The notes beneath the pieces are model-generated. The model searched no databases, was not told where the DNA came from, and saw nothing but the letters and a program-made list of their open reading frames with translations. 64,000 nt of DNA from a virus: positions 79,933 to 143,932 of the IMG/VR virus record IMGVR_UViG_3300042502_001732, one strand, 5' to 3'. Below are positions 46,924 to 63,833 of this stretch, one piece after another. How positions within the stretch are numbered: position 1 is the first letter of the stretch; each line of letters starts with the position of its first letter. The position numbers were made by a program, and so were the translations under genes.

Positions 46924-46941
46924 GTGTTAATTTATTTATAT

Positions 46942-48969: not shown

Positions 48970-49053
48970 TGGTGGGCAAGGAGGGACTTGAACCCTCACG
49001 CATCACTGCACGGGCTTCTAAAACCCGCGTGGCTACCATTACACCACTTGCCC
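48970..49053 (-). tRNA. tRNA-Leu(UAG)
   Basis: CGGGT-TT-TAG-AA-GCCCG, long V-arm, CCA. Confidence 0.9.
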
Positions 49054-49057
49054 AAAT

Positions 49058-49094
49058 AAAAAACGGAGCCAACATAGAGAAGGCTCCGTTTTTG
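49058..49094. terminator. Bidirectional terminator
   Basis: AAAAACGGAGCC...GGCTCCGTTTTT. Confidence 0.8.
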
Positions 49095-49112
49095 TTTTAT
49101 ATTCTTATAATA

Positions 49113-49853
49113 TTAGAATGTCTTCTTAAACTCAATTCCACCGAAGAAAAGATTCTTCATGTCTGAATGCACACCAACCGAGTCATCAAGACCAAGTGAG
49201 TATGAGACAAACGGAACAGCGGTCACGCCTTGCACAACTGGAATGTCAGTCGACACAGTGGTCTCAAAGTGAGTACACTGTCCTTCTTGAGCGAGATAGC
49301 CAAGCTCAGCGCGAAAGTCAAGCATCAATGAAGATCCAAAATCATCACTGTATGTTGCAGCAAGTTCGCTATAGCTGTTATTGTCACCAACAAGTCCGAC
49401 ATACTGAGTAAGCGAAAGATCGATTGGACCAACTGCACGTGATACAGTCAAGCCAGCTTCTTGCGATTGTCCTTCCTGTCCTGCATAGTCTTGCGAATAC
49501 CAGGTATAGCTCAAAGATACGAGATAGTCAGCAACACTCTTAGAAAAGATTGCAGAGAGCTCAGTAGCTTCGTCCTTCCCAGTTGTTTCAGCGTTTGCAT
49601 AGTCAGCGCTAAGTGCCAACGAAACGTCCGCAGGAAGTTCAGTTGTCGTTTTGACGATTGCATTTGCTTCATTTGCACCTAGATCAGCACCACGCCAAAC
49701 CTTATCAGAAGAGTAGCCAGTTTCAAGCGTCACCGGCGTGAATGCTGAAGGAGCGTCTTCGATTGGGCCTGCATAGGCATAGTTAAGAGCAGCAAGTGCT
49801 GCAATAAGTCCGACTTTAACGATTTGTGTTTGTTTTTTCATATTATAGTTCAT
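49113..49853 (-). CDS. Outer-membrane beta-barrel protein, copy 2
   Basis: Signal peptide; ETGYSS..VWRGADLG; FFGGIEFKKTF; paralog of 1193-1930. Confidence 0.7.
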   Translation of the reverse strand: MNYNMKKQTQIVKVGLIAALAALNYAYAGPIEDAPSAFTPVTLETGYSSDKVWRGADLGANEANAIVKTTTELPADVSLALSADYANAETTGKDEATELSAIFSKSVADYLVSLSYTWYSQDYAGQEGQSQEAGLTVSRAVGPIDLSLTQYVGLVGDNNSYSELAATYSDDFGSSLMLDFRAELGYLAQEGQCTHFETTVSTDIPVVQGVTAVPFVSYSLGLDDSVGVHSDMKNLFFGGIEFKKTF

Positions 49854-49874
49854 TTTGTTTTTCAGGGGGAGAAG

Positions 49875-49949
49875 TGGTGGGGAGTGAGGGATTCAAACCC
49901 CCGGCCGACTCGGTGTAAACGAGATGCTCTATCGCTGAGCTAACTCCCC
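49875..49949 (-). tRNA. tRNA-Val(UAC)
   Basis: CTCG-TT-TAC-AC-CGAG; slightly atypical D- and T-loops. Confidence 0.85.
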
Positions 49950-49969
49950 ATAAAAGTATCTATATGTGT

Positions 49970-50059
49970 TGGCGGAACGTGTAGGATTTGAACCTACGGT
50001 AGAGTTGCCCCTACATTTCCTTAGCAGGGAAACACTTTCGACCACTCAGTCAACGTTCC
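49970..50059 (-). tRNA. tRNA-Ser(GCU)
   Basis: TTTCC-CT-GCT-AA-GGAAA, long V-arm, G73. Confidence 0.92.
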
Positions 50060-50063
50060 AAAA

Positions 50064-50154
50064 TGGCGGGTAGAGTAGGATTCGAACCCACGGAGGCGAT
50101 TAAACCTCTCTCGATTTCAAGTCGAGCGCCTTAGACCAACTCAGCCATCTACCC
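50064..50154 (-). tRNA. tRNA-Ser(UGA)
   Basis: CTCGA-CT-TGA-AA-TCGAG, long V-arm. Confidence 0.92.
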
Positions 50155-50160
50155 TAAAAT

Positions 50161-50958
50161 TTATAAGCCGTCAGACAGGTCATAGATGCGATTTGAAACA
50201 TCAACTGACTTGTCTTTCATGAGTGTTTTGGAAAGTGTGCTGTTGTATGACAGCAGCAGTGCAATTGCAAGTGGATCAAACACAGCAATGATTATGCATA
50301 TAAAGGCCATTACGATTGTATCGAGCGGCAGATTAAACTGATCGGCAATAAACTTAAACGTTCCAATGTCTTTTGATGCCGACATCTTGAGTTTTAGCTC
50401 TTGTATTTGTGTGTCAAGCTCTCTCTTGCTGTCTTGCAGTTGAACTATTCTCTCGCGCTGTGCTTGCATTTCAGCCGCTGTTCTTTCAATATCGGCATAG
50501 ATTGGTCGTGCATTTGCCGCAGACATCTTTGGCAAGCGTTCTTCTTGTGACCGCCGCGCAGCGTTTAGTGTCTCTATTCGTGAGTTGATTTGTGAGACTT
50601 CAGAGTCGATGCCGCTCTTACGTTCTTGAAGAGACCCAACCTGGGAGTCGATGTTAGAAAATTGTATTGAGTTTACAGCATAGGCAGACGATAGATAACC
50701 AAAAATACCGAGTGAAGTTATACACATGAGTACGAGTGTCGCAGTGACGAGATAGCCCTTTAAGAGCGCTGATGTGTATGCCCAATAGTGATGCAAATAG
50801 GTCGTCGCTACAAGTTTGCCAATCTCTAGTGCACTTGCCATGATGAGCACTGAAACATAGCTACCACTAAAGAGTGTAGCAATGCCAAGTACTGAAAACC
50901 ATGCGGCACATCCAGCCACAAGTAGACTAGTAATGAATAGCAGTGCACGTAAAACCAT
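50161..50958 (-). CDS. Membrane/coiled-coil phage protein
   Basis: Three N-terminal TMs (MASALEIGKLV), coiled coil, C-terminal TM with FDPLA. Confidence 0.75.
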   Translation of the reverse strand: MVLRALLFITSLLVAGCAAWFSVLGIATLFSGSYVSVLIMASALEIGKLVATTYLHHYWAYTSALLKGYLVTATLVLMCITSLGIFGYLSSAYAVNSIQFSNIDSQVGSLQERKSGIDSEVSQINSRIETLNAARRSQEERLPKMSAANARPIYADIERTAAEMQAQRERIVQLQDSKRELDTQIQELKLKMSASKDIGTFKFIADQFNLPLDTIVMAFICIIIAVFDPLAIALLLSYNSTLSKTLMKDKSVDVSNRIYDLSDGL

Positions 50959-50974
50959 GTCATGATATTTATAA

Positions 50975-50994
50975 TGGTGGGCCCGGTTGGGTTC
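50975..50994 (-). pseudogene. 3' remnant of a disrupted tRNA
   Basis: GAAC-CCAAC-CGGGCCC-A-CCA; acceptor strand pairs with the 5' half at 51636-51668. Confidence 0.75.
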
Positions 50995-51004
50995 TTATTA
51001 AAAA

Positions 51005-51080
51005 TGGTAGGCCCGCTCGGATTCGAACCGAGGGTCACCCGATTATGAGTCGGACGCTTTCACCGCTAAGCTACGAGCCT
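51005..51080 (-). tRNA. tRNA(CAU), probably Ile2
   Basis: TCCGA-CT-CAT-AA-TCGGG; AGGCTCG/CGGGCCT acceptor. Confidence 0.88.
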
Positions 51081-51090
51081 TTATAGAAAT

Positions 51091-51615
51091 TTAGTTCTTA
51101 GAAATATTTCGATTTTTTAAAGAATTTGAAATTTTTTGTTTTGTTTCTTCGCTCATCGGCTTTCTTAATTTTGCTGCTTTCGAAATATTTTGCTTTGCAG
51201 TTTCACTAAGTTTTCTACCTTTTGATGAAGAACCACCACGTTTTCCAGCATCAATAAATTTTTGTTTATTATCACTGGAATTTAAAGTTTTTTTAATTTG
51301 TGAAATAGTTTCATTTGAATGAGATTTGCCTTTAAAATGTGATCCACCTTCACCGCCGACTCCCATGTTATAAGTGTCCTTGCAATTTACAAATTCTTCA
51401 GTAATCAATTCTCTTTCTTTTGCATTCATCTCCTCTTCTGTTTGGAAAATAAACAATATTTCTTTTTGAAAATTTTCCTTACCATATTTTAATATAGCTT
51501 CCTTGATTGCCTTTCCGGAACCATAATACGAATCATTTGGATTAGCAGTTTGATGTTTACCTATATAAAATTTATTATTGATTAGATTTGTAGTTTTATA
51601 GATTGTATAGAACAT
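51091..51615 (-). CDS. GIY-YIG (Seg-like) homing endonuclease with NUMOD3-like repeats
   Basis: YTIYKTTNLINNKFYIGKH, YYGSG, HSNETI/LSETAK/MSEETK; start MFYTIY after TATAAATA at 51621. Confidence 0.88.
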   Translation of the reverse strand: MFYTIYKTTNLINNKFYIGKHQTANPNDSYYGSGKAIKEAILKYGKENFQKEILFIFQTEEEMNAKERELITEEFVNCKDTYNMGVGGEGGSHFKGKSHSNETISQIKKTLNSSDNKQKFIDAGKRGGSSSKGRKLSETAKQNISKAAKLRKPMSEETKQKISNSLKNRNISKN

Positions 51616-51635
51616 AATTCTATTTATACAATCAT

Positions 51636-51668
51636 AGACCCCTGCTCTTACCGCTGAGCTACAAGCCC
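51636..51668 (-). pseudogene. 5' half of a tRNA (positions 1-33)
   Basis: GGGCTTG-TA-GCTC-AGCGGTAA-GAGC-A-GGGGT-CT, then break. Confidence 0.85.
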
Positions 51669-51873
51669 CTTTCATTATAAAACTGGTCCGTTTTCTTTTT
51701 GTTCGTGATCTATGTATTGCCCAATATGTTGATGAACATTCAGCGATCGACGAAATGATTCATGCTCAAGTTTGGCTATTCGCTCTCTAAGTTCATTCAT
51801 CTCAGAGAGTAGCGCTTCTACTTCGGCGTCAATCAAACTTTTAATATGTTCTGTATTCATAATCTTTTAAAGA

Positions 51874-51958
51874 TGGTAGCTATGGTCGGACTCGAACCGA
51901 CAAGCCATAAGGCAACGAATTTTAAGTTCGCAATGTTTACCAATTTCATCACACAGCC
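51874..51958 (-). tRNA. tRNA-Leu(UAA)
   Basis: GCGAA-CT-TAA-AA-TTCGT, V-arm, CCA. Confidence 0.9.
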
Positions 51959-52047
51959 ATAGAAAATTTAGAGGTTGTCGACGAGATAATTGTTCGACTT
52001 TAGGGACCTCATGCTCCTGTAAGCGATACCACCACAGTACCGAAATT

Positions 52048-52680
52048 TTATTTATTAGAGATATTATAATTCTTACATGATTCTAAAGAATTTAGAATAA
52101 CAATATTGTCATATTGATTTAACAAACATTTTAATTTTTCATTTTGAACTTTAATTGCTTGGGGATTTTTTGGATCTAGATATAGATTATATTCTGGAAG
52201 ATAAAAATCTGGAAAATAATTATGTGTTATACCATCTTTATCAATCCATGGCAATGGACTTGGTCTAAGCCAAGTAATATTACATTCATCTAAACGTTTA
52301 GCGAGTTCTAATTCCCATGAAGAATCTAACATTATTCCATTATATTCAATAATTCCTCTTCTTAATCTTCTATGAGGTGAAGAAAGCGCCTTTTCTTTCA
52401 TCAATTGTTTAGATTTTTCAGTATGTTTTCTTCCTTTCCAATAGTTATTATTAATTAACGGCGAAACTATTTGCTTTCCCTCAGATTTTGCTTTATCATA
52501 TTGATTAGTAATTCCAGATTCTTTTTTCGCTAAATTCATAGCAGCAACAGCCTTTAATGAACCATTTTTATATTCAGTTCTTTTTGGGTTTTCTTTACAC
52601 CATCTACTATGGTTTGCCATCCATCCACTTGGTTTATCGCACAAATCAAATTCTTCTTTACAGTGTTTACATTTATTCAT
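52048..52680 (-). CDS. PD-(D/E)xK-type putative homing endonuclease
   Basis: N-terminal CKHC..H..WC; HTEKSK; DSSWE...YFPDFYLPEYNLYLDPK. Confidence 0.8.
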   Translation of the reverse strand: MNKCKHCKEEFDLCDKPSGWMANHSRWCKENPKRTEYKNGSLKAVAAMNLAKKESGITNQYDKAKSEGKQIVSPLINNNYWKGRKHTEKSKQLMKEKALSSPHRRLRRGIIEYNGIMLDSSWELELAKRLDECNITWLRPSPLPWIDKDGITHNYFPDFYLPEYNLYLDPKNPQAIKVQNEKLKCLLNQYDNIVILNSLESCKNYNISNK

Positions 52681-52696
52681 AATAGTGTTTTTAAAT

Positions 52697-52771
52697 TGGT
52701 GGGTATACTAGGATTCGAACCTAGGCGAAGGATTTAGAAGACCCTGATGCTATCCATTACATTATATACCC
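52697..52771 (-). tRNA. tRNA-Arg(UCU)
   Basis: AGGGT-CT-TCT-AA-ATCCT; D-loop GGATA. Confidence 0.88.
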
Positions 52772-52792
52772 ATACACTATTATTTATAAATT

Positions 52793-52827
52793 AAATCCCT
52801 TGCTCTAATCCACTGAGCTACGTTCCC
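52793..52827 (-). pseudogene. 5' half of an Arg-type tRNA truncated in the anticodon
   Basis: GGGAACG-TA-GCTC-AGTGGATTA-GAGC-A-AGGGA-TT-T, then TATAAATA at 52781-52788. Confidence 0.82.
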
Positions 52828-53513
52828 GTTTTTCATATTTAATTAAAGTCAAAGGTGTCTACTGTAATGTCATGTTGCTTAAGAAGACGAACCGCGTTGT
52901 CACGTTTACGTTTGCTGTTCCAGAAAAGCTCAATCTCTGCAGCATCGGCATCGTTATAGGTGTGAATGTCGCTTAACGCCATTGCTTCCATATAGCATTC
53001 ATCATTGTGAAATACAATCGAATATTGTTTTGTTTTCATGCGGTCTTAGTCGATGTCCTGTTTCATATTGTATTGGAGTTTCTCAAAAGATCAGACTTCA
53101 GCATTGACCTCACATTCATTTATAACATAATCATCATACGCAGTATTTTCATAACGATTGTTGACACGATCAGCATCAACCTTAGCCTTATAGGCATCTA
53201 GTGCGCAATTTGCTTTTTTAAGTGAGCTATAAGCTCCTAATACGACGTCGCCTTCATAGTCTACGCGTCCTAATAAGAGAAATATTGAAGATTTGTTTTT
53301 CATATTGTGGTTGGTGTTGCTTACATGGTTATTATAGCATAAAACGCACAGAAAGTACACAACTTTTTTCATAAAAGTGAAAAAAGATCCCGAAGTTAAG
53401 CCTGGTATAGAGAAAATTTGCCCATGACAGATTGCTGCTACACTCACCCAGGGCTGGGGCTATCTAGAAACCACATCTAGCTGCGTCATACTTTATCGCG
53501 TATGAATACGAAT

Positions 53514-53582
53514 TACGAGGGGGAGGAATTTAACCTCCACTCTAGACTATGGGCCTAGCGATCTCCGTATGATCCCTCTCGC
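53514..53582 (-). tRNA. Degenerate tRNA-like element with CAU loop
   Basis: CTAGG-CC-CAT-AG-TCTAG; GGAGG-TTAAATT-CCTCC; imperfect acceptor; no CCA. Confidence 0.45.
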
Positions 53583-53882
53583 AAAGTGTTTTCCCCACTA
53601 CCGAATAATTGACCAGAGTCAACTTGAAGAAACGCAGTGACTATTTCATCTTGGTGGCTAATTCCAAGACTAGTTTAATGTGCGTCGGATTACATTCGGC
53701 GTCACCGGGTTGCCATCCCGTTCTTAGCCTCAATGCTCATTGTAGGATCAATGCCTACAATGGCAGGGAAAAATGGTGGGGTATTCTCGTATCATGTTTA
53801 AACCATGCGCTGTCTAGTGTGCACCCATCAAGCGTAGAGGGCATGAGGAGAATAAAGCCGCTAAGCTCTGCCCCATTGAAAT

Positions 53883-53956
53883 TGGTGCGTCATGTGAGGG
53901 TCGAACTCACGCCTTCAGAGTGGAAGTCTAATGTGCTGCCGTAACACTTATGACGC
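53883..53956 (-). tRNA. tRNA-Gly(UCC)
   Basis: TTAGA-CT-TCC-AC-TCTGA. Confidence 0.88.
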
Positions 53957-53962
53957 AAAAAA

Positions 53963-54065
53963 TAGACAATGTAGATGGAATCGAACCATCGCCTCGGCGT
54001 TGTCGCCTATCCTATCGGACAAGAAACCCTTTGCTTGGGGCGTGCTACCACTACACTATACATTG
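53963..54065 (-). ncRNA. tRNA-like RNA with expanded anticodon/variable region
   Basis: Perfect CAATGTA/TACATTG acceptor, normal D- and T-arms, about 50-nt centre. Confidence 0.6.
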
Positions 54066-54071
54066 AAAGAC

Positions 54072-54497
54072 TTAACGTTTGATCAGGTCAGACACAGCAC
54101 GTGTCATTTTACCAATGTCAGCCATTGTTGGAAAGACACTGTTCGGGCTGTCGCCACCTCTAATTGAGAGGATTGGCTTGTGTGTGCCGGTTTTGGCGAG
54201 TGCCATATTGCCGCGAATATAGTCATCAGCACCCATCTTGCCCATGCTCATAGTGAGCGTATACTCTTGTCCACCAATCTCAAACGAGACACCAGTATAG
54301 CCAGAGTCGAAAAATTTGGCGTGTGTGATTGACCCACGGGGCGTGTCGGCAGAATTTAAAATTGTTTGCAGATAATCTTGAACGCTTTCTGGAACAGACC
54401 GTCCAAAGCCAGTGACTGGTGCAATAGCGACCTTTTCGAGAATTTGCTTTGCAGCTTCAACTAGACTGTCTGGTTGTGTAGAATTAAATGCGTTCAT
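54072..54497 (-). CDS. Leader-family protein
   Basis: QPDSLVEAAKQILE; TATAAATA at 54503-54510. Confidence 0.7.
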   Translation of the reverse strand: MNAFNSTQPDSLVEAAKQILEKVAIAPVTGFGRSVPESVQDYLQTILNSADTPRGSITHAKFFDSGYTGVSFEIGGQEYTLTMSMGKMGADDYIRGNMALAKTGTHKPILSIRGGDSPNSVFPTMADIGKMTRAVSDLIKR

Positions 54498-54514
54498 ACT
54501 ACTATTTATAAAAA

Positions 54515-54600
54515 TGGTGGGCAGAGCTGGATTCGAACCAGCGTAGGCGTTAGCCAGCAGATTTACAGTCTGCCCCCTTTAGCCACTCGGGCATCTACCC
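54515..54600 (-). tRNA. tRNA-Tyr(GUA)
   Basis: GCAGA-CT-GTA-AA-TCTGC, V-arm. Confidence 0.92.
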
Positions 54601-54708
54601 ATTTAGCAATGTATGGTTATTGACCCACACGGAATCTAGTATTTTATATACTAAGTTAAAACTGTTTTTGTATCTCTATTCTTTACCCCTTAAAAGGCAA
54701 AAATATAT

Positions 54709-55077
54709 CTACCAAATAGAACCAGGTTTAGAGTTGGGTCTATTTTTATCCCAAAAATGCTTACCAGCAGCAGTTTGATCTGAGCTACGATATATTTTAT
54801 AACCACGTTTCGATAAAATATCATAAACCATTTTTGCTAGTCCCTTACCTCTGTGCTCTTTAGATACCCAAATATCTATAGCTTTTAAATTTTTATTATC
54901 GTGTTTAAATGTAAATGTACCGATTTTTATTCTATCATCAATAAGATATACATATATCTCATCCAAGTAACTATCGATATCTATTTTAATATCATGGGTT
55001 ATTTTTTTACTAAAAATTGATTTGAGTTTATCAATAAAACTTTCTCGTATAAAATACTGTTTAAATGATATAATCAT
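54709..55077 (-). CDS. GNAT-family acetyltransferase with SFKQY leader
   Basis: VSKEHRGKGLA acetyl-CoA loop; QTAAGKHFW; MIISFKQYFIRE. Confidence 0.7.
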   Translation of the reverse strand: MIISFKQYFIRESFIDKLKSIFSKKITHDIKIDIDSYLDEIYVYLIDDRIKIGTFTFKHDNKNLKAIDIWVSKEHRGKGLAKMVYDILSKRGYKIYRSSDQTAAGKHFWDKNRPNSKPGSIW

Positions 55078-55236
55078 AATACTATTTATGCGAAAGTGAT
55101 GAGCTTTTATTCTTGTGCCATGCTCAGGGCTTAACAGGTGTTGTTGCTACATCAAAGGAGTTATGCTTGTTTAGCGTTCTAAAGTCACATCCTATGAAAC
55201 GCAATTGCCGCTATGCGAACCGCCCATTAAAAAAAT

Positions 55237-55316
55237 TGGTTGCGGGGGTGGGAGTCGAACCCACACCGAAGCCTAGCTTATGAGACTAGTTCAGCACCAC
55301 TACTGACTGCCCCGCG
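55237..55316 (-). tRNA. tRNA-Met(CAU), initiator-like
   Basis: C1-A72 mismatch (CGCGGGG/CCCCGCA); CTAGT-CT-CAT-AA-GCTAG. Confidence 0.8.
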
Positions 55317-55328
55317 ATTGAAAATTGA

Positions 55329-55439
55329 GCCGTCTAGAGAGGCGACATAGACACATTCCCGTACGCACCCGCATATGCAGTCCTGCACGTCATTTGTGTC
55401 TATGTACCGGGCATGGAGCCCGTGCACCTCTCTAGCGGC
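55329..55439 (-). ncRNA. Structured ncRNA of about 110 nt between tRNAs
   Basis: Stems GCCG.CTAGAGAGG/CCTCTCTAG.CGGC, ACATAGACACA/TGTGTCTATGT, CGGGC/GCCCG. Confidence 0.6.
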
Positions 55440-55444
55440 AAAGT

Positions 55445-55519
55445 TGGTAGAGGTACAAGGATTCGAACCTCGACAAACAGAATCAAAATCTGTGGTGCTA
55501 ACCGTTACACTATACCTCT
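55445..55519 (-). tRNA. tRNA-Gln(UUG)
   Basis: ACAGA-TT-TTG-AT-TCTGT. Confidence 0.9.
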
Positions 55520-55520
55520 A

Positions 55521-55594
55521 TGGCACGTCACCACAGATTCGAACTGTGACAAAAGGTTTTGGAGACCTTTGTGCTACCGTTACACCAATGACGT
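55521..55594 (-). tRNA. tRNA-Trp(CCA)
   Basis: AAGGT-CT-CCA-AA-ACCTT. Confidence 0.9.
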
Positions 55595-55598
55595 ATAA

Positions 55599-55674
<76 letters not shown>

Positions 55675-55684
55675 TAATAAAAAA

Positions 55685-55759
55685 TGGTCGGGTAATTGAG
55701 AATCGAACTCAACTAAACTTGCTCCCAAAGCAAGCGCCTCGCCAGTCGGCCTTTACCCG
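55685..55759 (-). tRNA. tRNA-Pro(UGG)
   Basis: CTTGC-TT-TGG-GA-GCAAG. Confidence 0.88.
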
Positions 55760-55767
55760 TAAAAATA

Positions 55768-55845
55768 TGGTACACCCAGTTAGACTCGAACTAACGACCC
55801 CACAATTATCAATCGTGTGCTCTAACCAAACTGAGCTATGGATGC
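55768..55845 (-). tRNA. tRNA-Ile(GAU)
   Basis: CACGA-TT-GAT-AA-TTGTG. Confidence 0.9.
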
Positions 55846-55854
55846 ACTTTAAAC

Positions 55855-55941
55855 TGGAGCCGAAAGTGGGATTCGAACCCACGATGATGTTTCCAAACCG
55901 GATTACAAATCCGGTGCAATCGACCACTATGCGACTTCGGC
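55855..55941 (-). tRNA. tRNA-Thr(UGU) with 15-nt variable region
   Basis: CCGGA-TT-TGT-AA-TCCGG; V = TTTGGAAACATCATC. Confidence 0.85.
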
Positions 55942-56631
55942 GTGATTGTATAAATCAATAAATTTTTTAAAAAGATTGCTATTGTATGCTATACCAACAG
56001 AATTAAATGCTCTACTTAAACATTTATGTTTTTCATATTCTAATTTTAGATTATCAAAGTTGTCTTTAATGATATTTGGTTTCGAATTATTCTCACATTG
56101 TTTGCAACAATATTTTTTCTTTTTCTTATTTGAAAATGTTGAATTGCAAGCTGCGCATGTAAAATGTTTTTGTTTCTTTTTTACAGTTCTTCCAAATTTC
56201 CATTCTTCGGAAACAATATAATCTTTAGAAACTTTCAAATTAACAATACCATTTGTTATCCATTTTGTATCATACTGACTATTGCATTCTCCCTTTGAAG
56301 TAATTTTAAATCGATGAGATGCATATTTAATAAATTCTTTACGTGCCCATTCATACATACGACCACTTTTAATGCATGGTCGATCACACGTTTTTGAAGA
56401 TTTCATTTGCATTGCCCAAAGAGCATATGCAGTTTGGCTGCATCGATTAAATTTTGAAAGAAGCAAATGCGCAATATAATGTTCACGACCAGATAGTGCT
56501 ACAATGTTTGATTCATCATCAGTGCCTCCCAATGATTTTGGGACTATATGATGACGTTCAATATAGCCACACGTTAAGATATTTTGACGCCTATATTCTA
56601 TTAGGCGATTATATATCTGTTTGTAATCCAT
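55927..56631 (-). CDS. HNH (Mob-like) homing endonuclease
   Basis: ERHHIVPKSLGGTDDESNIV.L..REHYIAH; TKWITNG; TATAAATA at 56637-56644; stop lies inside tRNA-Thr. Confidence 0.88.
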   Translation of the reverse strand: MDYKQIYNRLIEYRRQNILTCGYIERHHIVPKSLGGTDDESNIVALSGREHYIAHLLLSKFNRCSQTAYALWAMQMKSSKTCDRPCIKSGRMYEWARKEFIKYASHRFKITSKGECNSQYDTKWITNGIVNLKVSKDYIVSEEWKFGRTVKKKQKHFTCAACNSTFSNKKKKKYCCKQCENNSKPNIIKDNFDNLKLEYEKHKCLSRAFNSVGIAYNSNLFKKFIDLYNHAEVA

Positions 56632-56683
56632 AAGTTTATTTATACAAAACGAACATTTAACTTACAAATTACAATAAAAAAAT

Positions 56684-56758
56684 TGGCTCCGACTCGTGGG
56701 ATCGAACCACGGACCCGATGATTAACAGTCATCTGCTCTGCCGCTGAGCTAAGTCGGA
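56684..56758 (-). tRNA. tRNA-Asn(GUU)
   Basis: GATGA-CT-GTT-AA-TCATC. Confidence 0.92.
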
Positions 56759-57384
56759 TTGTGAAATTATTTATAGTGAGGAATTTTAGAGACAAACTCC
56801 TCAAAATTTTCCGTATCAATGTCTATATATTCTTCATTGAGAGTAAGACGACCCCTGTGCCAGGCATTCCATTCTAGATCTTCTTGCAGCGTCTCTGATG
56901 TATGAATCTTTACTAGACTGTTTTCTCCAGAAATGTCGCATGCAGACAAGGCGTCTTCGTACTGTTCATGCCAATCAAGACCACCGCATTCAGAATCTTC
57001 GCTCACGAGTTCAACGAGTTCTTCGTCAGAGAGACCTGCATATTCATCATAGAGTTCTCTCAACTTTTCAGTGTCAACGCTAAATAACTTTCCAGTGTGT
57101 ACAGTTTCAGTCGTCCATTTTTCGATGTATATTTTCATAGTATTATTCGTCAAGTGAATTTAACCAACGCTTCTCACGTACGCGTTGGGCATGAGTAGAC
57201 CACATGCGACCTAGCGTGAATCCTAGAGCATGCATTTCAAAATAGTTTTGAAAGCGTGAATGATCGCGAGTGACTCTAAACTTGTGTTCACCGCTCTTAA
57301 GCGGTAGTTTTACTGAAAGGTAAAATTGACCGACCTTGATGTATGTTGAGGTGCGAATGACTATTTTCATTGTATATTATTTAT

Positions 57385-57459
57385 TGGTACTCACACGGGG
57401 AATCGAACCCCGATTGTACGGATGAAAACCGTAAGTCCTAACCGTTAGACGATATGAGC
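57385..57459 (-). tRNA. tRNA-Glu(UUC)
   Basis: TACGG-TT-TTC-AT-CCGTA. Confidence 0.9.
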
Positions 57460-57471
57460 AGGTGTTGTAGA

Positions 57472-57545
57472 TGGACGCACGTTCCAGTAACGCTCTGGAC
57501 TAGGCGGTTTTGCAGACCACTGCATAACTTCTCTGCCAACGTGCG
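57472..57545 (-). tRNA. tRNA-Cys(GCA), atypical T-loop
   Basis: GTGGT-CT-GCA-AA-ACCGC; U73; T-loop AGCGTTA. Confidence 0.8.
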
Positions 57546-57549
57546 AAAG

Positions 57550-57645
57550 TGGTACTAGAGGTGGGACTCGAACCCACATACGGCTCGATGACCGATTCTA
57601 CCCCCTTATAAAGAAGGACCTTTAACCAATTCAGGACACTCTAGC
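57550..57645 (-). tRNA. tRNA(UAU), Ile anticodon, with 23-nt variable arm
   Basis: GCTAGAG/CTCTAGT-A-CCA; CCTTC-TT-TAT-AA-GGGGG; V = TAGAATCGGTCATCGAGCCGTAT. Confidence 0.8.
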
Positions 57646-58341
57646 ATTAAAAATTTGTTCTTGAATTTTATCCCATGTAAGCATTGTTTTATCGAGAATT
57701 AAAACTCGTATTGAATGGGTCTGTTCAACAATTTTAATTTTTTCGCAATCACTAAACCCCATAGATGGATTAATGTTATTGATAAGAAAATCATTTTTAG
57801 GATCTAGATATACATCAAAATCTGGCAGATAAAAATCTGGTGTATATTGTCTACTTTTATTGAATGGATCGATATAATCGAATTTTTTTGGCTTTATCCA
57901 TCTTATGGAATTACTATCTAAAGATTTTGCAACACATACTTCATAAGAAGAACCAAATTTATGTCCATTATATTCGCATTTAGTATTAACAAATTTACCA
58001 CCAAGACCACGACGTTTAGCATGATCTGACATATTTTTTCTTAATTCTGAAGTGCTCCTAGCTTTAGCTGATGCAGACATCTTTTGTCGCGTTTCATTAG
58101 AAACTTCCACTGCAATTGGTTTTGGCAAATTTAATTTAATTGCTTTAGTATACTGATTTGTTCCATTTCCTTTGCGGGCATTCATAGATTCCATCCAACG
58201 AATAGTTTTACCATTTGGTAGTTTTTCACTTGGAGGTAATTTATCTTTTATTTTTCCATTTTCACATGCCCTTGCATGTCTAGAATAGGCAAATTTTGAA
58301 ATTTCTCTATTACATACTGGGCACAAGGAATGGTCATTCAT
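57631..58341 (-). CDS. PD-(D/E)xK-type putative homing endonuclease
   Basis: CPVC..H..AC; SNETRQKMS; GSSYE...YTPDFYLPDFDVYLDPK; TATAAATA at 58347-58354; stop lies inside the tRNA. Confidence 0.8.
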   Translation of the reverse strand: MNDHSLCPVCNREISKFAYSRHARACENGKIKDKLPPSEKLPNGKTIRWMESMNARKGNGTNQYTKAIKLNLPKPIAVEVSNETRQKMSASAKARSTSELRKNMSDHAKRRGLGGKFVNTKCEYNGHKFGSSYEVCVAKSLDSNSIRWIKPKKFDYIDPFNKSRQYTPDFYLPDFDVYLDPKNDFLINNINPSMGFSDCEKIKIVEQTHSIRVLILDKTMLTWDKIQEQIFNARVS

Positions 58342-58363
58342 ATAGTTATTTATAAAAATGAGC

Positions 58364-58396
58364 AAAGAATCCGCTCTACCACTGAGCTACAGGAGG
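58364..58396 (-). pseudogene. 5' half of a tRNA truncated in the anticodon
   Basis: CCTCCTG-TA-GCTC-AGTGGTA-GAGC-G-GATTC-TT-T. Confidence 0.82.
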
Positions 58397-58674
58397 GAAA
58401 AATTTATCGGTTAATCATATTGGCATGTCGATGAGGAGCGCAATGCGCTGCAACTACAATCGACTATGACTTTTTATAGGGACCGAAAACTCCTATATAC
58501 AAACCTTTGACATCGCATCACTGAGTGATCCAAGCCGTACAACCACGGACGTTCTCAACTTTCAGTAGCAGTTGATGTGGCATTTAGTTATGAAACTTTT
58601 GTTTCTTGTTGCTTACAGAGACATTATACACTAAACTCTCTCATATGTAAACATCTTTTTTATCTATAAGTGAT

Positions 58675-59271
58675 TTATTTATATTGTAAAAAATCCTTCC
58701 ATTCATCGCGAATCGTAACTTTTTCACTAAGCGCGCTAAACTCGATGTCTTTTAGCATCTTAGGTTTTACCTCTGAGCCATGAATGTTGAAATATGGAAA
58801 CTTGTTTGATTTTTTGGTATTGCACTTTTTGCAAGACAGAACGATATTGTCGTCGTTGTTGCCGCCTCCACGACTGCGAGGAATGAGATGATCACGAGTC
58901 GCAGAAGTGTATGGAATTTTCTTTAAGCAATATTGACATTCTCCTCCATAGATATAATACAGCTGACGAAGGTTGATTGCGCGCGGCTGCTTTTTGCCTT
59001 GCTTGTAGTGACCAAAATAGCCTGGCACCACTACAATTGTAGGAATTGCCCACAATGTGTCGACGCTTCTCAGCGCAGGATTGTTTGGACTGAGATGATC
59101 ATCGTTTGCTATCCAGCTGCTCCAGTCTCGTATGTTTCCATACTGGTCATAGGCTTTTACGCCTCCAACCATCATGTTTCGAATTGCAGACCGAGCAGAA
59201 AAAAATCCACATGGTTGAAAGCCTGCAGTCAATACGAGTGTAGTCTTATGAGAGGGAAAAACTGGAATCAT
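58675..59271 (-). CDS. HNH endonuclease (McrA-like)
   Basis: TLVLTAGFQP; CQYC..TRDHLIPRSRGG..NIVLSCKKCNTKK. Confidence 0.85.
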   Translation of the reverse strand: MIPVFPSHKTTLVLTAGFQPCGFFSARSAIRNMMVGGVKAYDQYGNIRDWSSWIANDDHLSPNNPALRSVDTLWAIPTIVVVPGYFGHYKQGKKQPRAINLRQLYYIYGGECQYCLKKIPYTSATRDHLIPRSRGGGNNDDNIVLSCKKCNTKKSNKFPYFNIHGSEVKPKMLKDIEFSALSEKVTIRDEWKDFLQYK

Positions 59272-60409: not shown

Positions 60410-60850
60410 AAATTGTTTTTTGAAAGTGGTGAGCAGTTTTAAGAGATGCTCAACTCTCTAGAGCGGTTTAACGAGTGCCCGAAGCTCAAAGCTTTTTAAA
60501 AGATGTTCAACTCTTGTGATTACCAACTACCGTTCATGGTTTGGATAAAGATGACGAACCAAACTGCTGCATTGATTCCGATGAAAATTCCTAATGTTTC
60601 TTTCATATTGTGTTGTGTTGCTTACATGGTCATTATACACTAAAATGCAGAGAAAGTACACAACTTTTTTCAAAAAAGTGAAAAAAGGCCCCGAAGTTAG
60701 GCCCCGTATAGAGAAATCTAGTGCTCCCAAGGTCTAAAAATGTCAAATTTACGACTTTTTATGCAAAAAATACCCACCAAAGTGTGCATCGTTGAGAGGC
60801 ATGGTGGGTCTGCTCGAGAGTTATATTTGACAAAAATCAAAAGAGTTTAT

Positions 60851-63212: not shown

Positions 63213-63221
63213 ATAGTCTAT

Positions 63222-63833
63222 TTATACTTTTTTCTTCTTCTCTTCAGCGCGTATGCGACTCTGTATCTTTTTGCCGCGCTTTTCCAAACGATCAAGTACC
63301 TGATGTGCGTCCATCCAGATGTCTTTGTCTTCAAGCATCTCTTTAATCTCGCCTTCGGTAAGAAAGTCTGAATACATATCTTTGAAAAGATTTGCACTCC
63401 AGTTGCGTTCATGAACCATGCCATGATACATCTCACCGCCTTTGCCAGCAGTGCCAGCACTATAGTTATGAAATAGGAACATGCTATGATCTGTAATCAT
63501 ATACTCATCGGCCATCAAAAAGATCAGAGTTGCAGCACTCATGCATGCCCCTTCAACACTTACCATAATATGGGCTTCAGTTTCAGAGAGTGCCTGCATA
63601 AATTGAATGGTAGTAAACAGGTTACCTCCTGGGCAATTGATATGAATCTTTACTACATCGGATGGACGACTATTGCGTATATCATGAAACCATTGTATAT
63701 AGTCACTTGCATCACCAATCTCTTCAGAAAGATAATACTCTTTGACTGCACCATAGTCGCTCGTAAAGCAATCATTTGCGCCGCCTTTTAGTAGATCCAG
63801 TAAGCCCTTATTTTGTATGTTGTGTTTATGCAT
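63222..63833 (-). CDS. ClpP-like peptidase
   Basis: IHINCPGG, GACMSAATLIF, MFLFH, DIWM; start probably MHKHN. Confidence 0.82.
   Translation of the reverse strand: MHKHNIQNKGLLDLLKGGANDCFTSDYGAVKEYYLSEEIGDASDYIQWFHDIRNSRPSDVVKIHINCPGGNLFTTIQFMQALSETEAHIMVSVEGACMSAATLIFLMADEYMITDHSMFLFHNYSAGTAGKGGEMYHGMVHERNWSANLFKDMYSDFLTEGEIKEMLEDKDIWMDAHQVLDRLEKRGKKIQSRIRAEEKKKKV

Follow-up and report, generated by a model that had tools for sequence, protein, structure and literature searches.

SegB of phage T4 is a free-standing homing endonuclease encoded in a tRNA cluster; it cuts the tRNA genes of relatives and co-converts neighbouring tRNA genes (PMC2330249), and linkage to tRNA genes is widespread among SegB homologues (PMC13096335). 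The PD-(D/E)xK homing endonuclease I-Ssp6803I resides in a group I intron of a cyanobacterial tRNA-fMet gene (PMC3943268; PMC3239194). [quoted passage not shown] Here, a phage locus is described in which a nuclease gene and an unusual tRNA gene with a UAU anticodon and a long variable arm (V-arm) stand together inside a broken tRNA-Ile(UAU) gene. It is located on the minus strand in the final 64 kb of the 143.9-kb IMG/VR virus record IMGVR_UViG_3300042502_001732, which belongs to an uncultured lake phage; this stretch of 64,000 nt is referred to as the window. The preferred explanation, to which a probability of about 75% is assigned on the basis of sequence comparisons, is that a homing-endonuclease cassette invades the ordinary tRNA-Ile(UAU) gene and carries a tRNA to replace it.

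As with SegB in phages T4 and T6, the nuclease gene is free-standing inside a tRNA array, and some close relatives have it while others do not. SegB is a GIY-YIG enzyme, whereas the nuclease of the window is of the PD-(D/E)XK type and its cutting is predicted from sequence. Unlike in the SegB system, the break runs through the anticodon of the resident tRNA and a structurally different spare tRNA with the same anticodon is carried along. With I-Ssp6803I, the locus shares a nuclease of the restriction-enzyme fold that is tied to the anticodon loop of a tRNA gene, but it has neither an intron ribozyme nor a 3' exon, and the damage would be repaired by a spare gene and not by splicing. In Aeromonas phage Aeh1, insertion of mobE splits nrdA into genes-in-pieces. 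There too, a free-standing homing endonuclease gene sits inside a host gene without an intron; the protein pieces reassemble, but a split tRNA cannot, so that a spare gene would be supplied here. The locus would be a variant of intron-less homing in phage tRNA clusters and suggests a solution different from self-splicing, in which the element supplies a substitute for the RNA gene that it destroys. In a literature search, neither cassettes of a nuclease with a spare tRNA nor a class-II-shaped tRNA-Ile were found to be described.

The broken tRNA gene and the cassette

The resident tRNA-Ile(UAU) gene breaks off precisely at the step from anticodon base 34 to 35. Its orphan 5' half (Table 1) is identical in 33/33 positions to L086:4876-4908, which is part of an intact tRNA-Ile(UAU) at the same site of the related contig L086. 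The flanks of L086 are 94-95% identical to the window, and the intact tRNA is preceded there by the same promoter and the same leader of ~225 nt. When L086 was compared with the window by blastn, homology ended at 58364 and restarted at 57545. Given the identity of the 5' half and the point at which homology restarts, 58363-57546 is a replacement cassette. It stands in place of 50 nt of L086, namely the 3' 42 nt of the tRNA and a spacer of 8 nt.

The matching 3' half was not found within 7 mismatches of its 42 nt in the whole 144-kb contig, and no group I intron or other ribozyme was matched in Rfam at E values up to 10 (57546-58680). A group I intron or a split tRNA was therefore rejected. 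It was also considered whether the long-arm tRNA is the old tRNA with an inserted V-arm, but this was rejected as well, as only the core of the anticodon arm is common to both. The shared sequence of the ordinary and the long-arm allele is just TTCTTTATAAGGG with 13 nt (up to 15 nt in comparison with some alleles), and the ordinary allele carries the same TTC-TTTATAA-GGG core.

An earlier interpretation made from the letters of the window (the sequence-only reading) had claimed a physical coupling of the two genes. This was confirmed, as nuclease and long-arm tRNA form one linked unit that is seated in the broken ordinary allele. Position 58396, where that reading had placed the border of its unit, is the first base of the orphan 5' half and belongs to the same structure. 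What it had observed directly was correct in every element: the open reading frame (ORF) ends with N-A-R-V-S-stop inside the tRNA, the anticodon is UAU and the variable arm has 23 nt.

The ordinary tRNA-Ile(UAU) of the relatives (L086:4876-4950, L102:7629-7703) has a C1-G72 pair. Its T loops, ATCATTC or GTCAGCA, are without the usual TTCRA, the motif that SegB-type enzymes recognise. In the window, a terminator-like hairpin extends across the break; a role as terminator is speculative.

Table 1. Positions of the features at the tRNA-Ile(UAU) locus, numbered from the first letter of the window.
Feature	Position	Strand	Description
Sigma-70-like promoter	58623-58651	-	TTTACA-17-TATAAT at the head of the array; 11/12 matches; conserved in relatives; putative function
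Leader RNA	58397-58622	-	~225 nt between promoter and first tRNA; resident, outside the cassette
Orphan tRNA 5' half	58364-58396	-	nt 1-33 of the ordinary 75-nt tRNA-Ile(UAU), ending with anticodon base U34
Terminator-like hairpin across the break	58360-58376	-	GAGCGGA/TTTGCTC followed by ATTTTT; 1 site versus 0.7 expected, not significant
Cassette	57546-58363	-	818 nt with TATAAATA motif, nuclease gene and long-arm tRNA
TATAAATA motif	58347-58354	-	T4-late-promoter-like, 5 nt upstream of the nuclease ATG
Free-standing homing-endonuclease-like gene	57631-58341	-	236 aa; predicted PD-(D/E)XK nuclease domain at the C-terminus, C2HC zinc finger and NUMOD-like helices at the N-terminus
ORF/tRNA overlap	57631-57645	-	15 nt; last four codons (A-R-V-S) and TGA are tRNA nt 1-15
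Long-arm class-II-shaped tRNA(UAU)	57550-57645	-	96 nt, encoded CCA, A73, 7/5 acceptor/T stems
Anticodon UAU	57608-57610	-	Loop UUUAUAA, closing stem CCUUC/GGGGG with two U-G pairs
Variable region	57578-57600	-	23 nt: UAGAAU, 4-bp stem CGGU/GCCG, loop CAUCGA, UAU

Allele states in related phages

Homologues were recovered by pattern scans of IMG/VR, JGI metagenomes and GTDB genomes together with synteny searches. Behind a conserved HNH gene (58675-59271 in the window) and the leader, five allele states were found. An ordinary tRNA(UAU) of 75-80 nt without a nuclease orthologue is present in 14 contigs (state 1). The order of the window, that is half tRNA, TATAAATA motif, nuclease and long tRNA, is shared by L085 and L155 (state 2). 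In ten contigs (L089, L090, L062, L152, L154, L160, L161, L103, L106 and L158), the long tRNA comes first and is followed by a degenerate fossil half with the motif and the nuclease (state 3); their nucleases fall into two groups that are 58% and 49-51% identical to the one of the window. The long tRNA stands alone in L087, L088, L157, L159 and L163, and is preceded by a tRNA-Met in L083 and L084 (state 4). Finally, L162 keeps the long tRNA, the fossil half and the motif, with a different small ORF in place of the nuclease (state 5). In this contig (L162:3000-3827, minus strand), the long-arm tRNA has 93 nt, the fossil half and GTATAAATA come next, and the small ORF starts like a lipoprotein signal (MKFNILCVLICAILGTSC).

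Nuclease orthologues (at least 49% identity) always adjoin a long-arm tRNA(UAU) and never the ordinary allele of 75-80 nt. The fossil halves all end alike at about position 34, directly before (T/G)ATAAATA. Presence and absence of the nuclease were observed at the same locus with flanks that are 91-97% identical: it is found in the window, L085 and L155 and is missing in L086, L087, L088, L083 and L084. In L103, a pristine 26-nt stub of the ordinary allele of its own clade is located ahead of the cassette, while the sister contig L102 has this allele whole; the break is at position 26-29, and the stub shows an independent invasion. L103 and L102 differ downstream of the cassette as well. The HNH marker of the backbones that carry cassettes is 75%, 78%, 83% or 95-100% identical, which is comparative data and not a cross; on such data, horizontal spread with co-conversion of flanking markers was found.

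According to the sequence-only reading, identical long-arm tRNAs should not be common without an adjacent nuclease. Taken literally, they do occur in this way: L024, L004 and L157 have an identical 96-nt tRNA and L019, L077, L159 and L163 a nearly identical one, all of them lacking the nuclease. Apparently, these are best regarded as derivatives that have lost the nuclease. Judged from the allele sequences, the ordinary allele is ancestral in at least two clades, the cassette entered each of them separately and the nuclease was apparently lost later in some lines. Homing endonuclease genes normally pass through such a succession, and the intact target, the invaded and the post-nuclease state are all preserved in close relatives.

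The nuclease gene

The ORF frame extends over 57631-58365 (minus strand), and the likely start is the ATG at 58341, 5 nt past the TATAAATA motif. The protein matches PHROG 15137 'endonuclease' (4e-16) and, marginally, T7 endonuclease I. Four residues (E134, D169, D180 and K182) are invariant in 14 homologues and form the pattern SSYE...PDF...LDPK, which mirrors the E/D/E/K site of T7 endonuclease I. An AlphaFold (AF2) model reached a predicted local distance difference test (pLDDT) score of 82.5, and its residues 116-236 align with Bax1, TnsA, Vsr and I-Bth0305I with Z values of 7.4-8.0. Nearly every row in the list of structural matches is a PD-(D/E)XK nuclease. The assignment of the fold is based on these structural matches obtained with VIA-align and on the catalytic motif; Foldseek returned nothing at E 0.001 or better for the model, and a sequence search of solved structures gave only marginal matches to T7 endonuclease I. 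With I-Bth0305I (EDxHD, Vsr-like fold; Z 7.4), the protein has in common a nuclease domain combined with an extended DNA-binding region, but its motifs resemble those of T7 endonuclease I (E...PD...DxK) and not EDxHD.

The N-terminal 115 residues comprise a CxxC...H...C finger and helices, and some relatives score NUMOD3 or C2H2 fingers. Such a modular build of nuclease and DNA-binding modules is typical of phage homing endonucleases (PMC3943268). The catalytic residues are intact and the gene lies outside a self-splicing intron or intein, as it has its own start and neither an Rfam intron nor a 3' exon was found. Thus, sequence and model predict that the ORF is an intact PD-(D/E)XK nuclease of the homing-endonuclease type. 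The family comprises at least 317 clusters at 90% identity, none of which is named; further homologues are P0002 and P0003 with 79% and 61% identity, respectively. In IMG/VR, family members occur within tRNA arrays and their commonest place is directly upstream of tRNA-Thr(UGU).

The ORF ends with AAT GCT AGA GTG TCC TGA and its overlap with the tRNA spans the 5' strand of the acceptor and the start of the D arm. Within the loci of the dataset, nuclease ORFs of the PD-(D/E)XK, HNH and GIY-YIG types mostly end inside the next tRNA or at most 11 nt from it. An overlap of 15 nt is the commonest, because positions 13-15 of tRNAs often read T-R-R. At the empty site of L087, AAT is already present before the tRNA, so that the overlap is ordinary for these arrays. 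The nuclease ORF, having no stop of its own, would borrow the TGA from the D arm as a common by-product of tight packing.

Structure and conservation of the long-arm tRNA

The long-arm tRNA is called by ARAGORN as a tRNA-Ile(tat) of 96 nt including the encoded CCA. It scores 40.8 bits with the Rfam tRNA model (gathering score 29), which assigns a 20-nt insertion to the variable region; the 23 nt given in Table 1 are a direct reading between anticodon stem and T stem. The acceptor stem has 7 bp with a G1-U72 pair and is followed by three nucleotides and a D stem of 3 bp. The D loop is GAAUUGGUUAA and the T arm is canonical (GUGGG UUCGAGU CCCAC).

The tRNA was recovered in about two dozen contigs in the form of nine distinct sequences (96, 94 or 93 nt), all nine with the anticodon UAU. 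In five distinct homologues, 24/24 pairs of the cloverleaf and the 4-bp V stem are kept (120/120 cells paired). Compensatory changes were found in five pairs. Two of these belong to the V stem, which occurs as CGGU/GCCG, CGGC/GCCG, CCGA/UCGG and CCGG/CCGG, and the acceptor, anticodon and T stems contribute a single pair each. The covariation score was reached by 0/500 shuffles, and slid controls were paired to only 42-53%. Given the kept stems and the covariation, the element is a selected class-II-shaped tRNA with 7/5 stems and neither a pseudogene nor an allo-tRNA. On these comparisons, it is under selection and not a chance cloverleaf.

With a variable arm of 23 nt that includes a 4-bp stem and a loop, the tRNA exceeds the 10 nt above which a stem-loop arm marks class II; its anticodon UAU is not one of Leu, Ser, Tyr or Sec. 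In bacteria, a class II shape is unexpected for a tRNA with an Ile anticodon. With the class II tRNAs (Leu, Ser, Tyr) and with allo-tRNAs it shares the long variable arm with stem-loop, a D stem of the 3-bp type and a large D loop. It differs from them by an anticodon other than Leu/Ser/Tyr, by A73, by a V stem of 4 bp past a 6-nt linker, and by its occurrence in a phage with a linked nuclease. Among the long-arm tRNAs described so far, UAU is a predominant anticodon only in the (8/4) allo-tRNAs (PMC5389517). Their 8/4 or 9/3 arrangement is in contrast to the 7/5 acceptor/T stems observed here with covariation, and an eighth acceptor pair would be U-C.

The origin of the long-arm tRNA was sought among 273 unique tRNAs by local alignments. 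The best ones were with a 99-nt tRNA-Pro and short tRNA-Leu; only a generic likeness to class II tRNAs in D and T arm was seen, and no donor emerged. A scan with a 5'-end pattern for the same tRNA body with another anticodon returned only UAU tRNAs and three chance matches in coding DNA. The GAATC in the V region was considered as a relic of the old anticodon stem, but its conservation does not extend to the 93-nt variants and the acceptor is mismatched, so that it was regarded as a coincidence.

Charging and decoding

The codon AUA accounts for 37% of the Ile codons and for 29 per 1000 codons, and this heavy use explains a UAU tRNA at the head of the array. Minor tRNA-Ile(UAU) that read AUA without lysidine occur in Mycoplasma mobile and as a suppressor in Bacillus subtilis. 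Like the spare tRNA, they have UAU, A37, A38 and A73, which would offer a TilS-independent route of AUA reading; they are ordinary class I tRNAs, while the spare tRNA is class-II-shaped. The long-arm tRNA has an N-A-U anticodon together with A37, A38 and A73 (loop UUUAUAA, discriminator A), as expected of a tRNA-Ile. The stem determinants of the E. coli isoleucyl-tRNA synthetase (IleRS) are C4-G69 and C29-G41. These are absent from the long-arm tRNA, which has A4-U69 and U29-G41; the ordinary allele has C4-G69 but also U29-G41. The long-arm tRNA keeps the unusual anticodon stem of its target with U29-G41, U30-G40 and then C31-G39.

The long-arm tRNA probably reads AUA as Ile, as judged from its sequence and context; the non-Ile charging that the sequence-only reading had raised is less likely, with a small share of the probability going to outcomes other than Ile, Leu or a mixture of both. 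Ile is favoured by the replacement of a tRNA with the same anticodon, the near-identical backbones, the kept anticodon arm, the purifying selection after loss of the nuclease and the heavy use of AUA. [quoted passage not shown]

Proposed mechanism and alternative explanations

The nuclease would be made late in infection, and relatives infecting the same cell would have their ordinary tRNA-Ile(UAU) gene cut by it close to the anticodon. The break would be repaired from the genome that bears the cassette, with the leader and the 5' half of the tRNA on one side and the downstream region on the other serving as homology, and the repair would install the nuclease together with the spare tRNA. The long-arm tRNA would escape cutting, as it differs from the target outside the core of 13-15 bp and its V-arm shifts the T arm by 18 bp. 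At the same time, it would restore the decoding of AUA, most likely as Ile.

Some points weigh against this explanation. The contigs are metagenomic, some are duplicated between collections and their counts are not phylogenetically independent. The putative target site was placed only by the position of the break in the resident gene; the TTCTTTATAAGGG core is present in both alleles and discrimination must therefore rest on flanking bases, which differ on both sides. The two orders of the cassette, with the nuclease before or after the tRNA, require rearrangements, and the contigs with the tRNA alone could in principle never have had a nuclease. Finally, the TATAAATA motif is just 5 nt away from the ATG of the nuclease and would, if it is a promoter, produce a leaderless mRNA.

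The sequence-only reading had proposed that the V-arm disrupts the target of the nuclease. As the alleles differ everywhere outside the core and the long-arm tRNA did not come from the old one by an insertion, no special role can be assigned to the V-arm, and overall divergence explains immunity equally well. It is rather doubtful that the V-arm itself is the immunity determinant, with a nuclease that requires the anticodon arm together with the neighbouring V-loop and T-stem, and 18 extra bases that displace this half-site. Consistent with such a role, the break at 34/35 implies that the target should span the anticodon arm and its 3' side, the V-arm begins 5 nt after the common anticodon-arm core, and SegB recognises a T-stem-loop motif (PMC2330249). 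Furthermore, tRNAs of at least 84 nt with a class I anticodon account for 10/44 beside a nuclease and 10/207 elsewhere (Fisher p 5e-4), among them tRNA-Thr(UGU) of 86-88 nt beside nuclease paralogues and beside an HNH gene of the window; this comparison covers unique tRNAs of the fetched loci, a sample chosen through this tRNA and nuclease with rows that are not independent, and it is a lead only. However, the acceptor, D and T arms differ too, several tRNA-Thr next to nucleases have normal length, and long-arm tRNA-Pro, tRNA-Met and tRNA-Cys exist without an adjacent nuclease. It is unlikely that the long arm is mainly directed against tRNA-targeting defences of the host (anticodon nucleases, V-loop cutters) while the nuclease hitch-hikes. 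The long-arm tRNA is indeed retained and foldable after loss of the nuclease, but neither the break at the anticodon with the nuclease sitting in it nor the constant absence of the nuclease beside the ordinary allele would be explained. A defensive function is compatible with invasion by a homing cassette and not exclusive of it.

A decaying pseudogene or chance cloverleaf is very improbable. While the extra nucleotide between the acceptor and D stems, the modest Rfam score and a z-score of the minimum free energy of just -1.28 would agree with it, all stems are kept by compensatory changes in variants from three phage clades, the encoded CCA, the canonical T loop, G18G19, U8 and A14 are present, and the tRNA is kept in contigs after loss of the nuclease. 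Charging with Leu, or with a mixture of Leu and Ile so that AUA is partly read as Leu, is quite unlikely, albeit suggested by several features. Bacterial LeuRS ignores the anticodon, and the tRNA contains the full E. coli tRNA-Leu identity set, which consists of A73, U8-A14, A15-U48, G18-U55 and G19-C56 (PMC2377443). Its D and T arms resemble the phage's own tRNA-Leu, tRNA-Tyr and tRNA-Ser, and G1-U72 with A73 is also found in the phage tRNA-Leu(UAA); yet both occur in the phage tRNA-Ile(GAU), too. The replacement of a class I tRNA with the same anticodon, whose unusual anticodon arm was kept, indicates the same role. As AUA makes up 3% of all codons, insertion of Leu would change most proteins, and relatives with either allele are 91-97% identical in their flanks, leaving no time for recoding. 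Moreover, the length of the D loop varies between variants (11 versus 9 nt) and a 6-nt linker holds off the V stem, unlike in the phage tRNA-Leu. The overlap of ORF and tRNA might also couple the two genes in their regulation: cleavage by RNase P at the 5' end of the tRNA would remove the stop codon, yield a non-stop mRNA and could limit expression of the nuclease, so that protein would be released from unprocessed transcripts only. This is a possible but tentative explanation. It agrees with a stop located 15 nt inside the tRNA and with three nuclease types ending in or near the next tRNA in most contexts, with 15 nt as the commonest overlap. On the other hand, tight packing and stop triplets from the conserved tRNA positions 8-10 and 13-15 give the same pattern, many of these junctions are homologous and hence not independent, and the empty site of L087 already carries the AAT.

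Putative promoter, leader and late-promoter-like motif

The leader is conserved in the window, L086, L089, L091 and L102, where it stands ahead of the first tRNA in several clades, and contains several conserved hairpins; its conserved cores are ACGTCCGTGGTTGTACGGCTTGGATC and ATAGGAGTTTTCGGTCCCTAT. No Rfam family matched it. The TATAAATA motif was found 16 times in the window compared to 5.8 expected matches, and 15 of the sites are on the coding (minus) strand. At nine sites, the ATG of an ORF of at least 141 aa follows 5-9 nt later. Examples are 63219-63226, 56637-56644, 54503-54510, 51621-51628 and 46933-46940. The same motif is located after the fossil halves in L089, L103 and L162. If TATAAATA acts as a T4-type late promoter, the resulting mRNAs would be leaderless or nearly so.

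The tRNA array and other unusual tRNAs

The record has a GC content of 33.6%. ARAGORN detected 21 tRNA genes in the window, all on the minus strand, and 20 of them form an array (48970-57645) with interspersed small ORFs. Its first tRNA is the long-arm tRNA(UAU) with the nuclease ORF in front. A nucleotide search against named phages gave only tRNA-Glu matches and no close cultured relative, and the helicase is at most 40% identical to those of isolates. L163 (NZ_JBIKRX010000153.1), a 3-kb contig with the head of the phage array and the 96-nt tRNA without a nuclease (1940-2035), is binned in a Flavobacterium metagenome-assembled genome from Lake Mendota, which either points weakly to the host or results from faulty binning.

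At least four nuclease genes from three families are present in the array. These include a paralogue of the nuclease at 52048-52680 (minus strand; 30% identical, with the same PD...DPK core) and a GIY-YIG homing endonuclease at 51091-51675 (minus strand; PHROG 314, 2.5e-44). An HNH homing endonuclease at 55927-56631 (minus strand) is preceded by TATAAATA and ends 15 nt inside the downstream tRNA (region 55855-56644). This tRNA is an 87-nt tRNA-Thr(UGU) with a variable region of ~15 nt. L083, L084 and L087 are without this HNH gene and have an unrelated 75-nt tRNA-Thr directly after tRNA-Asn. In L132, L135, L140 and L147, tRNA-Thr of 86-88 nt adjoin PD-(D/E)XK nucleases.

Long-arm tRNAs with further class I anticodons were found in related arrays, namely Pro with 99 nt, Met with 87 and 94 nt, Cys with 87 nt and Asn with 87-89 nt (L098:6047-6145, L107:6454-6552, L097:4340-4433, L138:1982-2068 and 2686-2772, L098:7441-7527). 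Conversely, tRNA-Leu(UAA/UAG) of 77 nt without a long arm are present at L098:6967-7043 and L007:4410-4486. The length of the variable arm thus seems unusually labile in these phages, and the locus suggests a testable reason for many oddly shaped tRNAs in phage arrays. As a speculative generalisation, held with considerable reserve, homing endonucleases that target tRNA genes may favour spare tRNAs whose architecture is rewired; in the present case this would be a class-II-shaped tRNA that IleRS accepts, and the long-arm Thr, Pro, Asn, Met and Cys tRNAs would be parallel cases. If so, nuclease pressure and not translation would be a main driver of unconventional phage tRNA shapes, and class I synthetase systems would tolerate a long variable arm in nature.

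The neighbouring tRNA-Cys(GCA) at 57472-57545 (minus strand) was called by ARAGORN and was not detected with Rfam even at E 1. It departs from the canonical form in the D arm and the T loop (AGCGTTA). Since it is also present in L086, it is resident, and it lies outside the cassette. Rfam detected two tRNA-like elements that were missed by ARAGORN, one of 100 nt with 43 bits at 53966-54065 and one of 69 nt with 28.6 bits, just below the threshold, at 53514-53582 (both minus strand). Just upstream of the array region, an abiF RNA motif was found at 60772-60808 (minus strand) with 47.1 bits compared to a gathering score of 37.

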